DNA of 64,000 nt from Spirulina sp. Its GTDB lineage: Bacteria; Cyanobacteriota; Cyanobacteriia; Phormidesmidales; Phormidesmidaceae. How positions within the stretch are numbered: position 1 is the stretch's first letter; the number at the start of each line of letters is the position of its first letter. The position numbers and the translations under genes were made by a program. The stretch lies in contig JBIPSI010000016.1 in the NCBI GenBank assembly GCA_044070495.1, positions 32,001 through 96,000 of the forward strand, given 5' to 3'. Of the stretch, positions 49,316 to 53,971 are shown one piece after another. The notes below the pieces were generated by a model. That model saw only the letters and a program-made list of their open reading frames with translations. It searched no databases and was not told the DNA's origin.

Positions 49316-49567
49316 TCAGGGAGCAATTGCCGTTTCCTCCCGTGGCCCTAGGGGTTGCCATCCGGCTTGCCAAAGATCGCGGTTTTTCAGTTGTTTGGCA
49401 TTCACCCACAGCCGCACCGAAGGATCGCAGGAGGCCACCAGTTCCGCAAACACCCAGTCGCCCTCCTGTTTGCGGTTGGCCACCTGGAAATGTCGCCAGC
49501 CTTCGGTGGCGTGGCGGGCCGTCCATTTAGAACCCAGCAGGTGGGGAAATTTTTGTTTACGAGCCAT
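49316..49567 (-). CDS. TIGR02450 family tryptophan-rich protein
   Basis: KQKFPHLLGSKWTA....GWRHFQV, W..GW. Confidence 0.88.
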   Translation of the reverse strand: MARKQKFPHLLGSKWTARHATEGWRHFQVANRKQEGDWVFAELVASCDPSVRLWVNAKQLKNRDLWQAGWQPLGPREETAIAP

Positions 49568-49794
49568 CGGAAACCATGAAAATCAAGGGTTTTGCTGTAA
49601 GGTACAAGCGCGAAGCAATTCACCAAAACCCATCCATACCATCATAAACCCGCTATGGGCGTAGGGTGGCCAAGGGGGTGGTGCATTGCGGCCAAGGGGT
49701 GGTGCCGCAGGGGCGAAGGATGACGGTGCCGCGAATACCCCATCGCTACCTAGCCAAAGGATATGATGAAGGGGCCGCAACCCAAGATCGGACT

Positions 49795-50064
49795 ATGCCT
49801 GTCGTCTCGATGTTCTATGGGGTAATCGTACTGATGTATTTCTTTGATAATAGGAAGCATCATCAGCCCCATATTCATGTGAAATACCAGGGCGAAGAAG
49901 CCGTGATCTCAATTCCAGATGGATTGGTCTTGGAGGGTAAGCTACGTAGCTCAAAGCTGAAGCTAGTGTTGGCTTGGGTTGAGATTCATCAAGACGAGTT
50001 GATGGCAAACTGGGAATTAGCGATTGCGGGTGAGCAGATTTTCAAAATTGAGCCGTTACGATAG
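49795..50064 (+). CDS. DUF4160 protein (putative TA component)
   Basis: MPVVSMFYGVIVLMY, HHQPHIHV.Y, WVEIHQDELMANW. Confidence 0.9.
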   Translation: MPVVSMFYGVIVLMYFFDNRKHHQPHIHVKYQGEEAVISIPDGLVLEGKLRSSKLKLVLAWVEIHQDELMANWELAIAGEQIFKIEPLR

Positions 50065-50074
50065 GAGTAGAAAC

Positions 50075-50335
50075 ATGATGTCTCCTAAAGTGGTTAAGCT
50101 AGAAGCCCTAGAAAATAGCTGTCTACGATTGTTTTTTGACAACGGTGAAACTCGTATTTTTGATGTCTCACCCTATCTAGAAAAGGGCTTCTTTAAGGAG
50201 TTGCAAAATAGTCACTACTTCAAGCAGGCTAAACCTTTCTTTGGCGGTGTGCAGTGGCCTCACGAACAAGATTTTGGCCCAGATACCCTATTCCTAGAAA
50301 GCACCCTAGAAAGCGTTTGGGATGTAGCAGGATAA
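50075..50335 (+). CDS. DUF2442 protein (putative TA partner)
   Basis: LRLFFDNGE...FDV.PYL..G.F, VQWP.EQDFGPDTL; RBS AGGAG. Confidence 0.88.
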   Translation: MMSPKVVKLEALENSCLRLFFDNGETRIFDVSPYLEKGFFKELQNSHYFKQAKPFFGGVQWPHEQDFGPDTLFLESTLESVWDVAG

Positions 50336-50345
50336 TGAACCGATT

Positions 50346-50496
50346 GGTACATAACGCCAAGGCGAGGCTAGCGCCAACGCGAAGCAATGCACCAAAGCCA
50401 TATACAGGGAAATTCGTGATGAGTAAGCGGTGCATTGTGGCCAAAATGATTGATCGCGCCATTGCCGAAAATGTTGGTGCCGCGAATGTACCCTAC
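50346..50496. repeat. REP-like hairpins immediately upstream of the Y1 transposase
   Basis: 50346-50394 matches the reverse complement of 1721-1769 at 47/49; 50429-50496 is GGTGCATTG...AATGTACCCTAC. Confidence 0.8.
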
Positions 50497-50713
50497 GGCT
50501 ATGGCGAGACCTAAACGCAGTTTTCAGACGGGCTATTGCTACCACGTTACGGTTCGCTGCAATAACCGCGAGTTTCGATTAATTCGGGATGAGTGCCGGG
50601 AGATTTTGCTGTACGCCTTGGAGCGCTGCAAGGCAACATACGGCTTCAAGCTCTATGCCCTGTGCATTATGAGCAACCATGTGCATTACCTGATTGAGCC
50701 TGGTGGGGTAGAA

Positions 50714-51214
50714 TTCAAAGTTCAAAGTTCAAAGTTCAAAATTCAAAGTTCAAAGTTCAAAGTTCAAAATGGAAAAGTCTGTTCAGCCCATTACGGAGAG
50801 AACGTTTGCGTTTGCGGTGCGGATTGTGAAGCTCTGTCAGACGGTGGGAGCTACGATGGGGGTGAGCCAGCCTTTGGTGAGGCAGTTGATCCGGTCGGGA
50901 ACATCGGTGGGGGCTAATGTGGAGGAAGCGCAGGCGGCGCAAAGTCGGGCAGATTTTATCCACAAAATGGAAATTGCGCTGAAGGAGCTACGGGAGACTC
51001 GCTACTGGTTGCGCTTGCTAGTGGCGACCGACTTGGTGCCAGAGGAGCAAATGAGGGGATTGATGGGTGAGGCGGAGGAGTTGGTGAAGATTATGTCGAA
51101 GATTGTGGTGAATACGAAGGCGAGGAATAAAGTTCAAAATTGAAAATTCAATGTTCAAAAAGGTCAACTTAGACTTCTTTATTTTTTGAATTCATAATTT
51201 TGAATTTTGAATTG
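50714..51214. repeat. TTCAAAR heptamer tracts framing the four-helix-bundle gene
   Basis: 8 copies at 50714-50769; about 4 degenerate direct copies at 51133-51160; about 4 inverted TTTTGAA copies at 51184-51214. Confidence 0.9.
50769..51143 (+). CDS. Four helix bundle protein (23S rRNA IVS protein / Avd-like family)
   Basis: ERTFAFAVRIVKL, QLIRSGTSVGANVEEAQAAQSRADFIHK..IALKE.RETRYWLRLL. Confidence 0.93.
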   Translation: MEKSVQPITERTFAFAVRIVKLCQTVGATMGVSQPLVRQLIRSGTSVGANVEEAQAAQSRADFIHKMEIALKELRETRYWLRLLVATDLVPEEQMRGLMGEAEELVKIMSKIVVNTKARNKVQN

Positions 51215-51697
51215 ATATGCAACAGGGCTTTTTTTACGACTACAGCAACTACGGCACCTACGACCGTTTGACCACGGATGGCCTGACGCAATGGCACCCG
51301 TCTTTTTTGGCGTTGGGGGCCACGCTGGAACTCTGTGCTGAGGCGTATCGGAAATTTTGCAAAAAATATAAGCCCAAACCCAAGCCAGAGCGGCGCAATA
51401 CCTGGGGCAGCAAAAAACTGGCGGCGATTCGGCAGAAGATGAAGGCCAAAAAAAAGACCCCTGGCCAACAAAGCCTGTGGGATGAATGGCAAGCGCCGAT
51501 GGATGCGGTGCAAAAGGTTGCTAAGAAATTTGTATTAGCGAATTGTTTGAACCCAGATGTGGTAAGTGCCCGATTTGAGGCCAATACGACCTGACGCCCG
51601 GTGCCAGGTAAGCGATCCCCGAAACACCTAGTTTTCCGTGCAGAGGGGGTCGGTAATCATTCTTTTGGATCGGGCTGAAGCGCTTATCTGCTACAGT

Positions 51698-53971
51698 TTA
51701 CAAGTCTCTGTGCGAGAGAAGAGATGCCCACCCCCCCCAAACCCCCCCAGGAAATTCTCCTGCGGGGGAAAAAGAAGGGTTGGCTTTTAGGTCGCTGTAG
51801 TTCAGGTAGCTTCCGTCCTTGCGCCAGCCGACGCGATCTGCAAAGTCTTCCCAAGTTTCTTCATGATACTTGCCATCGAGCGGGTTGCCGCATTCCACAT
51901 AAAGTTGCTTTTGTACGCTGAAGCCAAACTTGCCTTGGCTGTACTTCACCCATAGCCCATCGAGGTGCAGCAAATCAGGGCAAGGAAAGTTGAGTAGCTC
52001 ATTCGAGTAAAGAATTCGTCCAAACTCTTTGCCATAGGTTTGCAGCATCAAGCGCCAGGTTTCCTCATCGGATTCTCTCCATTGGCCCTGTTGCAGGTAT
52101 TCCTCTAGCTGGCCAAAACGGCGGATTTTGATATCGGCCACTAGGTCATCATCTAAACGGCGGCGGTTAACGCGCAGGCAATCGTAGGCTAGGGATGCGG
52201 CGGCGTGGCTGCGGCGATAGGCGGCACGGAGCAAGTTGGTGGGGTTGACCTGGGCAACGTAGAGCAGAACGGTGCCCTTCCAGTATTCGTTGTCGAAGTT
52301 TTGCAAAAGCAGGTCTTCGTAGCTGGGGTCTCTTTGTACCTGATCTTTGATTTGGGTGGCGGCTAGGTATTCTTGAAAGCTGCGGTGGGCAAATTCGTAG
52401 CCGTCGTCTTTTTTCACCAGCAGTTCGCTCACCCGTTCAATGGTTTGGAGAAAGGGGCGAGGGGCAACGGTTTCGTCCTGGTCAGCCAAGCCCTGTTGAA
52501 TCAAGTCGAGCAGGGCATCGACGGGAATCACCTGCTGTTCGGCCTTCACCATGGCCAGAGCGACGTTTTGTAACACGGCCTGACTCGCCTCGGCGGGCAG
52601 GGGCAAATCCACCTTTTTGGCCATGGGGCGATCTCCCAGTTGCAGTTTGCAAATGCCGGAATATAACTCGGCCTGACGCTGGGGCAGTTGTTCGTTGGGG
52701 TAGCTGCGGTGAAACATGGCGATCATATTCAGCATCAGCGGATTTTCGGCCATGCTTTCCAGTTCTGGGCGATTGTCGATTTGGCTCAGCAGGTTTTCGG
52801 CCCGTTGCTTGGCAGCTTCTTGCACATCGGGTGTCAGGCGGTTGCCCCGATGAAAGCGCTCTTGGCACAGATACCACTGCTCCACAAAGCGGCGGCGTTG
52901 GTCTTCGTCAAAGGGTTGCACGGCTAGGGGCGTTTGCACCCTTTCGGCGGAGTAATCGGTGTCGTAGGCGGTGGGGCGCGAGGTGAGAATAAACACCGTG
53001 TTTGGGTACGCCTGCATTTGGTGGGTAATCCACTGGCTAACGGCGGGGCGCTGGGCTTCGGCAACTTCGTCAAAGCCGTCGAGCATCACCAGCAGGCGTC
53101 CGGTGTGCAGCAGGTTTTCGGCCCAGGAGGTCGGGATATCTAGAGCCTTGCCCTGGGCTAGGGCTTTGGCATGATGCTGGGTGATCAGTTCTGGCAGGGC
53201 GGGGGCATTGGGCTGGGCAATCGTGTCTCGCCAGGTGCGGAGGTACAACAGCACGGGGATAAGGCGAGGGGCTTTGTAGCGACAGCGCACCAAGCGAGGG
53301 CGAGTGGCATAGAGATAGGTGAGGTGGCGCAGCAGGGTGGTTTTGCCAAAGCCGCCGTAGGCTTTGATCACCAAATGGCGAAACTGGGGCGTTTTGGCAC
53401 TGAGGGCGAGGATATCCCAAATTTGCTGGGTGGGCCGCTCCTGCATCTGCTGAAGGATGTCTTCGGGCTTGTCGCCAAAGCCGGGTAAGGTGGGCAGGGC
53501 TTGGCCTTCAAAATTACGCAAAAACTCACTGCTGAGCTTCAGCGGTACATAGACTTCATCCAGGTCAGGATTCAAAATGCCAGAGGGCAGGGGTACTTCG
53601 TTATGGCTCACATAGGCACGACAAGCGCTGGCCTGAGCTTTGAGGTACTGGCCTTCCGTTCCCGAAAAGCGCCAACGAATTGCCCGATCCAGCCGATCAA
53701 GGAAAGCGACCAAGGCATCGGCATCCTGGGTGCCACGCTCCCCGGCAATTTCCCCCAACCGAGCCGTAAAGTTGCCCGTATACCTGGCCCACACCGCCGT
53801 TACCACCATGGCCGGAAACGTGAGCATGGCCATCGCCCACTCTTGCTGAAGTAAAAAGTGTGCAAAGGCCCAGCCACTCCCCCCCAACGGGCTCCACTGG
53901 ATCAAGGCATCCACAGCCTTTTGTACGTAGCGACGTTCAGGGCTGGAATTCGGGGCAGGTGGCTGAGTCAT
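51698..53971 (-). CDS. NACHT NTPase with C-terminal GUN4 domain
   Basis: Walker A AYGGFGKTT, Walker B LLVMLDGFDE, NPLML, FAHRSFQEYLAA; GUN4-like W.ESDEET...FPCPDL..LD.LW..YS.GKFGFSVQK. Confidence 0.9.
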   Translation of the reverse strand: MTQPPAPNSSPERRYVQKAVDALIQWSPLGGSGWAFAHFLLQQEWAMAMLTFPAMVVTAVWARYTGNFTARLGEIAGERGTQDADALVAFLDRLDRAIRWRFSGTEGQYLKAQASACRAYVSHNEVPLPSGILNPDLDEVYVPLKLSSEFLRNFEGQALPTLPGFGDKPEDILQQMQERPTQQIWDILALSAKTPQFRHLVIKAYGGFGKTTLLRHLTYLYATRPRLVRCRYKAPRLIPVLLYLRTWRDTIAQPNAPALPELITQHHAKALAQGKALDIPTSWAENLLHTGRLLVMLDGFDEVAEAQRPAVSQWITHQMQAYPNTVFILTSRPTAYDTDYSAERVQTPLAVQPFDEDQRRRFVEQWYLCQERFHRGNRLTPDVQEAAKQRAENLLSQIDNRPELESMAENPLMLNMIAMFHRSYPNEQLPQRQAELYSGICKLQLGDRPMAKKVDLPLPAEASQAVLQNVALAMVKAEQQVIPVDALLDLIQQGLADQDETVAPRPFLQTIERVSELLVKKDDGYEFAHRSFQEYLAATQIKDQVQRDPSYEDLLLQNFDNEYWKGTVLLYVAQVNPTNLLRAAYRRSHAAASLAYDCLRVNRRRLDDDLVADIKIRRFGQLEEYLQQGQWRESDEETWRLMLQTYGKEFGRILYSNELLNFPCPDLLHLDGLWVKYSQGKFGFSVQKQLYVECGNPLDGKYHEETWEDFADRVGWRKDGSYLNYSDLKANPSFSPAGEFPGGVWGGWASLLSHRDL

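Follow-up and report, generated by a model that had tools for sequence, protein, structure and literature searches.

The element analysed here is a 515-bp cassette at positions 50702..51216 (+ strand) of a 64,000-nt stretch of Spirulina sp. DNA (GCA_044070495.1, contig JBIPSI010000016.1; the whole stretch is called the window below), and the closest known thing to it is the intervening sequence (IVS) of 23S rRNA that bears an open reading frame (ORF), with which it shares all tested features except the location in rRNA. In Coxiella burnetii, according to the parts of the article by Warrier et al. (2016, PMC4990558) used here, the 23S IVS lies in helix 45, three tandem heptamers (GACAGAT) stand directly before the ATG of the S23p gene in a number that differs from strain to strain, and RNase III cuts the terminal stem of 28 bp at the first repeat; the same parts carry the authors' suggestion that S23p is not made in vivo. 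As far as that portion of the article describes it, the IVS resembles the window cassette in having an ORF of the S23p/PF05635 family, heptamers of variable copy number ahead of the ATG and a stem that closes around the ORF, in a total length of ~430-515 nt, and in the decay of the ORF in some copies. Unlike the IVS described there, the window cassette lies in a protein-coding transposase gene and not in an rRNA helix, its arms consist almost wholly of the heptamer word, an extra hairpin of direct units, loop and inverted units follows the ORF, and its protein is under purifying selection.

Among the dispersed heptamer repeats of bacteria are the short tandemly repeated repetitive (STRR) sequences of cyanobacteria. 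Furthermore, paired GGGAATC / GGGGAYT heptamer repeats, which are gene-less, have been described in Xanthomonas and Nostoc (PMC4692102). In the text of that article that was searched, these repeats are like the present arms in being tandem 7-base units, often arranged as convergent stem-loop pairs, that lie in and between genes and vary in length, whereas in the present case a gene stands between the paired repeats, and the clade of this gene co-varies with the word; the searched text contains none of the terms '23S', 'S23', 'four helix' and 'helix bundle'. Genes for 23S_rRNA_IVP proteins inside cas loci have been read, in the sections consulted of the paper by Zhang, Doak and Ye (2013, PMC3936711), as having a possible CRISPR-associated function. 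The genome studied here likewise has a PF05635 protein wedged between operon genes, namely cas1 and cas2, but in contrast to the account in those sections, where repeat arms go unmentioned, this cas-locus copy shares the armed-cassette design with the copy in the transposase gene.

The Avd protein of diversity-generating retroelements (DGRs) is also a small four-helix-bundle protein, and the genome's own Avd weakly matches PF05635 (E 0.007); unlike Avd, the cassette has no adjacent reverse transcriptase (RT) or template/variable repeats, and BLASTP between the two proteins gives E 0.66. Systems of repetitive extragenic palindromic (REP) sequences and REP-associated tyrosine transposases (RAYTs), known as RAYT/REPIN systems, resemble the host gene only, through its Y1 fold of the HUH (histidine-hydrophobic-histidine) type, its low copy number and a neighbouring dispersed ~50-nt repeat. 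The host gene differs from them in that its intact homologue stays below the 80-bit NCBIfam cut-off and the window copy lacks the catalytic Tyr, and no link between the host Y1 enzyme and cassette movement was found. In contrast to a classical insertion sequence (IS) or a miniature inverted-repeat transposable element, the cassette shows no target duplication and encodes no recombinase. Our literature search, outside which bioRxiv supplements and subscription journals lay, returned no description of heptamer-armed PF05635 genes outside rRNA.

The cassette and the transposase gene that it interrupts

The cassette is flanked by the two halves of one gene. On its left are the N-terminal 67 codons of a RAYT-like Y1 (HUH) transposase (50501..50701, + strand), which end in ...SNHVHYLIEP, are collinear with the intact homologue at locus L034, and match PF01797 (Y1_Tnp) with 36.3 bits (cut-off 23; profile positions 5-58 of 121, with the HVH motif) and the NCBIfam model REP_Tyr_transpos with 45.4 bits. 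On its right are the C-terminal 125 codons (51217..51594, + strand), which start at a native internal Met codon, have 90% nucleotide identity to positions 1501-1942 of L034 and, taken alone, match no Pfam or NCBIfam family. A DNA search across 53 genomes of the genus found many homologues, and at all ten retrieved cassette-free loci that have both halves the alignment to the window ends at 50700-50702 and starts again at 51215-51217, 191-193 bp of the homologue lying between these points. The intact L034 protein has 256 aa (67 + 64 + 125), and the 64 residues that are absent from the window copy include ...LRYIHANPKAAN (...RYIHANP...), the region of the catalytic Tyr. Since both flanks are collinear with one intact gene at a spacing of 64 codons, they are halves of one gene, and because the codons for the catalytic Tyr are lost, the window copy of the transposase cannot be active. 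The intact homologue matches Y1_Tnp over profile positions 2-120 of 121 (71.1 bits), its best NCBIfam match is the REP-associated tyrosine transposase (73.9 bits against that 80-bit cut-off), and the intact L034 gene, which has the same downstream neighbour as the window copy, serves as the empty allele. An earlier reading of the letters alone (hereafter the original prediction) had placed the cassette between the HUH half and the C-terminal half of one transposase and had estimated that about 60-65 codons including the Y..NP tyrosine were missing; the alignment to intact homologues that it proposed gave the same two breakpoints at every locus and a replaced segment of 192 bp, or 64 codons.

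The cassette opens with a G-rich leader (GGTGGGGTAGAA; 50702..50713, + strand), which is followed by the 5' arm (50714..50769, + strand), consisting of eight tandem TTCAAAR heptamers, the final base of which is the A of the start codon. The gene itself (50769..51143, + strand) encodes a 124-aa four-helix-bundle protein of the 23S rRNA-IVS protein family, and its stop codon lies inside four direct heptamers (TTCAAAA, TTGAAAA, TTCAATG and TTCAAAA; 51133..51160, + strand). After these come the 22-nt loop of a 3' hairpin (51161..51182, taken from the fold of 51120-51220) and the 3' arm (51183..51213, + strand), about four inverted units (TTTTGAA) that are complementary both to the 5' arm and to the adjoining upstream direct units. 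Tandem Repeats Finder reported the 5' array at 50714-50768 (period 7, 7.9 copies, 95% matches, unit TTCAAAG) and a second array at 51184-51213 (TTTTGAA, 4.3 copies, 73% matches). The order of units given in the original prediction, with eight heptamers running into the ATG and about four direct and about four inverted units after the ORF, was confirmed. Words of three TTCAAAR units, with up to 2 mismatches allowed, were counted nine times in the window, always within 50714-51160; 100 shuffles gave none.

The 5' tract and the 3' inverted tract are 76% complementary over 37-nt arms (50712-50748 / 51177-51213), and the 3' direct and inverted units are 79% complementary over 29 nt (51133-51161 / 51183-51211). 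When 50695-51225 was folded as RNA, the 5' tract closed on the 3' inverted tract in the minimum-energy as well as the centroid structure, and the local 3' hairpin at 51120-51220 has a folding energy of -22.6 kcal/mol (z -2.9). By complementarity and by folding, the inverted tracts are therefore able to form the stem around or after the ORF that had been proposed. A GGTGGGGAG-type box also stands ahead of the array at the second insertion site described below (locus 2; genomes G024 and G022, with variants in G025 and G029), and at the third (locus 3; G053) another G-rich stretch occupies the leader position. The 515 bp encode no recombinase, and at the transposase junctions there are neither terminal inverted repeats besides the arms nor a target duplication, as the original prediction had noticed. 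Scans for promoters and terminators gave two promoter-like and two terminator-like sites, not above shuffles; an Rfam scan of 49500-52000 (E up to 1) returned no rRNA and only two chance-level viral motifs, and 20 related loci had no Rfam match at the gathering threshold.

The cassette protein matches PF05635 with 80.3 bits (cut-off 33.8; residues 9-110 on profile positions 6-105 of 106) and TIGR02436 with 96.9 bits (cut-off 24), which agrees with the family that had been suggested for it, and its nearest solved relative is chain A of PDB 2rld, an entry with five chains (E 9.3e-25, residues 8-117). Between the cassette ORF and three intact relatives of the TTCAAAR subfamily, the ratio of non-synonymous to synonymous substitution rates (dN/dS) is 0.08-0.40; the protein is kept by purifying selection and is functional. 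PADLOC matched neither the cassette protein nor the intact transposase. The homology to DGR Avd that had been stated for this fold is only a remote link: at E up to 0.01 the cassette protein matches PF05635 and no other Pfam family, bAvd (PF22296) included. Two complete DGRs are present in the genome (contigs C15:274-3118 and C54:9199-11815; L149 and L150), each with a bAvd gene, an RT of 352-385 aa and targets of the formylglycine-generating enzyme (FGE)/C-type-lectin fold. Their Avds match bAvd at 8e-23 and 1.7e-19 and lie beside their own RTs, and no RT gene (C15, C54) lies near any of the genome's four PF05635 genes. The possibility that the cassette protein is the Avd of the genome's RTs was rejected, both DGRs having their own bAvd. 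An Asn-rich template-like repeat is visible in the C54 DGR.

The left junction was also found in other assemblies. In G038, an independent genome of the genus, it is identical letter for letter and is followed by eight heptamers with another G/A pattern; another sequence interrupts the ORF there, and the 3' end of the cassette joins sequence ~470 bp further downstream in the window, so that the C-terminal half is gone. In addition, a 468-nt metagenome contig from an unrelated run (record 10 of X2) spans 50673-51161, with 30 nt of the transposase and 459 nt of the cassette, and has three fewer heptamers than the window. A metagenome scan for the exact left junction returned no stretches. Intact-type continuations occur in the metagenome runs X2 and X4, intact and interrupted forms coexisting in one run. 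Heptamer arrays and dispersed repeats do break many contigs in related assemblies, and an assembly artefact could in principle have joined two transposase fragments over such a repeat, but with the left junction common to G038 and the metagenome contig, and with flanks that are collinear with one intact gene and have the same downstream neighbour, this explanation deserves practically no credence. The mis-assembly that the original prediction had allowed for is therefore not what we find.

Comparison of the alleles of this genome (G000) and G038 bears on the age of the cassette. Their N-terminal types differ, that of G000 grouping with a cassette-free copy in G005 and that of G038 with the intact gene of G035, and the dS of the transposase N-terminal half upstream of the cassette is 0.86. 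Identity between the two alleles is 82.7% in the distal part of the N-terminal half (19 of 110 nt differ), 91.8% in the 61 nt beside the junction and 94.4% in the first 108 nt of the cassette (6 of 108 differ). Synonymous differences were found at 8 of 37 sites (pooled) in the cassette versus ~18 of 40 in the N-terminal half, and Fisher's test of the distal part against the proximal part together with the cassette gave p 0.006. This pattern of sequence identity points, without proving it, to a cassette younger than the alleles in which it lies; it may have been passed from one allele to another when their flanking homology recombined, or else two insertions at one preferred site may have occurred.

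Other sites and the class of armed cassettes

The ORF and its TTCAAAR word (74-83% nucleotide identity) also occur at locus 2, between two other conserved genes, in four genomes, each of another species. The copies in G024 and G022 are intact, that in G025 has an in-frame stop and that in G029 a frameshift, and a fifth species (G056) retains a remnant; the cassette at this locus runs antisense to the gene on either side. The two flanks of locus 2 are on different contigs in this genome, and the locus was compared across the genus instead. Other species of the genus have at this locus a toxin-antitoxin-like pair, of one of two kinds, or else a G-rich hairpin of ~100 bp (L057-L068), and this varied content marks it as a small insertion hot spot. 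One remnant at locus 2 was seen to be overwritten by a REP-like repeat. At locus 3 (G053) the cassette is present, with its 3' arm cut off by an IS.

Other members of the family were also found in filled and empty form, so that the survey for heptamer flanks and empty sites called for by the original prediction had a positive outcome. When L024 is compared with contig C40 of this genome, ~485 bp of another cassette replace a spacer of ~14 bp between two operon genes with no target duplication, and at two filled/empty comparisons there was neither a poly-A tail nor a target duplication. In the relative G010 a cassette lies between cas4 and cas1, a place that is taken in this genome by a heptamer hairpin of the same word family that has no gene, and the copy of this genome one gene further along, between cas1 and cas2 (C1:146000-147800), is a PF05635 cassette with the word TTGGTTA/AACCAAT. 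A recurrent link between the cassettes and Y1 transposases was not seen: at the cassettes of relatives that were inspected no transposase flank was visible, no profile scan of those flanks having been made. These comparisons among relatives show that such cassettes are gained at some sites and lost from others.

Short tandem repeats with an inverted counterpart flank every one of the four PF05635 genes of this genome, with a different word in each case. This genome and 20 relatives yielded 27 distinct ORFs, of which two were dropped for short flanks; 18 of the 25 that were scored exceed, in the complementarity of their arms, the 99th percentile obtained from 1500 random positions with equal geometry, and 10 have a strict period of 7. 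A set across phyla was drawn from the 80 best relatives of one query protein, with one genome per species and one dropped for short flanks, and 57 of 79 loci exceed the same complementarity threshold, although this threshold comes from the composition of this genome and has to be read with care for AT-rich genomes. Among 46 representatives less than 85% identical to each other, the distance between arm words falls with rising protein identity (r -0.41, a value as negative as this being reached in none of 1000 permutations of the labels). Words that agree within one mismatch are found in 81 of the 175 pairs with 65-85% identity and in none of the 132 pairs with less than 45%. Arm words of the TTCAAAA type are kept in cyanobacterial relatives whose identity is 59-65% (L072-L075), and the TTCAAAR word persists within the genus over a synonymous divergence of 0.87-0.95. 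This persistence over divergence argues for a constraint on the word, although co-inheritance contributes to it. Relatives at E up to 1e-10 numbered 2117 among the candidates examined, and the cassette belongs to a class that is widespread and hardly described.

The words of the arms recur without the gene. Exact heptamer arrays that lie more than 400 bp away from every PF05635 gene number 46, and 29 of them equal an arm word of this genome or its relatives, compared with a mean of 3.6 and a maximum of 9 for letter-permuted words, and 39 match an arm word within one mismatch (null mean 12.0, maximum 20). Arrays of TTCAAAR with four to five units and extra sequence were seen in apparent coding regions (C27:74321, C9:109978, C5:23214 and C11:49253), by eye those of MutS2-like, helicase-like and kinase/WD-repeat-like genes, where they appear to be tolerated as in-frame inserts. 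In many of the metagenome stretches L151-L204 we noticed an inverted AATTTTGAA array, a C-rich box, a loop, a G-rich box and a direct AATTCAAAA array in this order, with the boxes adjoining the loop; the gene-less hairpins of this genome appear reversed, with the arrays by the loop and the G- and C-rich stretches outside.

Near-identical cassettes with the word CGGGAGT were observed inside large ORFs of different host genes in G014 (L007) and G005 (L008); the two fall into two different families of the class, and a DPACGS methyltransferase-like motif follows just downstream of one of them. This genome has five gene-less CGGGAGT arrays and no such cassette. In Nostoc and related genera (L076-L097, about twenty loci), a related cassette ends in AATTTTT-type repeats directly beside an apparent tRNA gene on the opposite strand, and the upstream flanks vary.

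Weighing the explanations

We consider it probable that the window holds an IVS-type selfish gene cassette outside rRNA, which inserted at the DNA level into a RAYT-like Y1 transposase gene and moves without a recombinase of its own. A four-helix-bundle gene carried between arms of one 7-base word (TTCAAAR) would have entered the transposase gene as DNA, with the loss of the 192 bp that contain the catalytic tyrosine, leaving a transposase that would be dead; the host gene would have been a chance target and not a partner. The cassette family would move among unrelated sites and replace short target stretches, with no recombinase and no target duplication, and the route would presumably be recombination or repair that uses either the repeat arms or the flanking host homology in genes that other strains carry. 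Spread of the cassette through repeat tracts, as the original prediction imagined it, would be a reasonable but still hypothetical route. The co-variation of protein clade and arm word suggests that the protein acts on the word, possibly by binding it. If the parallel with the Coxiella 23S IVS extends this far, the arms could pair as a stem in RNA transcribed across the cassette, and RNase III could cleave that stem.

Several results weigh against this explanation, or against parts of it. At the insertion point the intact target gene lacks a heptamer tract, and homology between arm and array could therefore account for this insertion only by way of an unseen intermediate. TTCAAAR tracts of at least three units number nine in this genome; eight are gene-less, and several lie inside coding regions. 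Furthermore, a metagenome scan for the G-box with two TTCAAAR units returned 54 stretches, and none of the 44 that have at least 450 nt downstream has a four-helix-bundle ORF within 700 nt downstream. Arrays are thus much commoner than cassettes: the gene predicts arms, and arms do not predict the gene. The co-variation of word and protein can partly be co-inheritance, in a sample that was picked around one query. For the comparison of the G000 and G038 alleles, Fisher's test of the distal part against the proximal 61 nt alone gave p 0.11 and that of synonymous sites p 0.053, both with few sites. The folding energy of the whole cassette is ordinary (z -1.37), and arm mismatches over 20 cassettes were G·U in 37 cases and A·C in 40 (p 0.82), with no excess, so that pairing is not visibly selected in the sense RNA. 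Among the sequencing runs, the best contains a fraction of 0.19 of the sampled words, and the sole RNA run (X20) covers only 50653-50700, which are 48 nt of the N-terminal half. The original prediction had spoken of a compact mobile or RNA-level element; the cassette is one compact unit with sharp ends at 50702 and 51216, but the RNA level found no support in these mismatches.

An RNA-level element, in which the arms form an RNA stem and the cassette is excised by RNase III as in rRNA or copied back by an RT with an Avd-like protein, would share its architecture with the Coxiella IVS, for which the portion of PMC4990558 drawn on above describes cleavage of the stem by RNase III. It would also accord with the folds that pair the 5' tract with the 3' inverted tract, with the capacity of TTCAAAG to pair with TTTTGAA through G·U in RNA, and with the presence in the genome of three RNase III homologues and two RTs. 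We nevertheless judge it decidedly unlikely, in view of the lack of a bias of G·U over A·C, the cassette at locus 2 that is antisense to both neighbours, and the two filled/empty comparisons without poly-A tail or target duplication. The reverse-transcriptase route is a weak one: both RTs belong to complete DGRs with their own bAvd, away from the PF05635 genes, and the cassette protein has no bAvd match at the threshold given above. Alternatively, the four-helix-bundle genes might be resident and not mobile, their arms being regulatory or products of slippage, with presence and absence explained by deletion and the G038 junction by descent. Array length and unit pattern do change fast, several copies are decaying (the stop in G025, the frameshift in G029, the interruption in G038, the remnant in G056), and gene-less heptamer arrays are widespread. 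In contrast, ORF and word occur together in three unrelated contexts, one of them in the middle of a coding gene that is intact at no fewer than ten loci of the genus, intact and interrupted forms occur in one metagenome run, and the G000 and G038 cassettes are less diverged than the host gene, all of which makes residence unlikely.

It could also be argued that the interrupted gene is a functional chimera, in which the truncated HUH N-terminal half, perhaps with the C-terminal half, is retained as a working protein, for example a hairpin-binding regulator, and the cassette supplies a new end or partner. The dN/dS of the N-terminal half among G000, G038 and the intact gene of G035 is only 0.02-0.05 (at most 5 non-synonymous versus 18-19 synonymous changes), that of the C-terminal half is 0.06 (9 versus 31 changes), and a native in-frame ATG opens the C-terminal half right at the junction. 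Taken alone, such strong purifying selection would suggest that the halves still function, but low ratios are also expected if the alleles diverged while intact and received the cassette later, as the mosaic pattern suggests. Furthermore, G038 lacks the whole C-terminal half and has Pro in place of the first His of the HUH motif, other broken copies exist in G005 and on contig C23, and the reading frame of the N-terminal half continues into cassette sequence that is out of frame, so that a working chimera is very improbable.

The explanation that we prefer, a selfish cassette that moves as DNA, could be extended to make the protein and the 7-base word a self-recognising pair comparable to RAYTs and REPINs. 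In this extension, which is attractive but doubtful, the word would be read in a clade-specific manner, diverged alleles would be converted in a homing-like process, breaks directed by hairpins would open new sites, and the gene-less arrays and hairpins, together with the rRNA IVSs, would be footprints or landing pads.

Neighbourhood and meaning of the cassette

A dispersed REP-like repeat, identified by blastn, lies just upstream of the transposase start (50346..50496). The query 50340-50500 has 25 further blastn matches in the genome, mostly to its first ~50 nt, and many copies across the genus; one copy cuts a second, truncated transposase copy on contig C23. The position of this repeat beside the interrupted gene fits a RAYT/REPIN-like pairing. 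The repeat was also seen at 1721-1769 of the window. Further upstream is a DUF4160/DUF2442 gene pair (49666-50335), which in G005, G038 and G059 is present beside other neighbours; G059 lacks the transposase region between the flanking repeats. A 757-aa NTPase-like gene occupies 51698-53971 on the - strand, and its 3' end accompanies the transposase in at least five genomes of the genus; the two may travel or be retained together.

What is new here is that a cassette of the IVS type lies in a protein-coding gene, that its breakpoints are exact, that an empty allele exists and that there is evidence for its movement. The PF05635/TIGR02436 family is very large and its function is not known, and the heptamer arrays of bacteria are likewise unexplained. 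The present locus provides a base-exact cassette of the rRNA-IVS type in a protein gene, together with an intact allele in sister species, two further sites and an insertion hot spot for comparison, and the base-exact locus, its intact allele and the further sites make binding of the word by the protein, processing of the stem by RNase III and conversion of alleles testable. For annotators, it means that such genes in cas loci, in operons and in split genes are probably inserted passengers and not components of the systems in which they are found.

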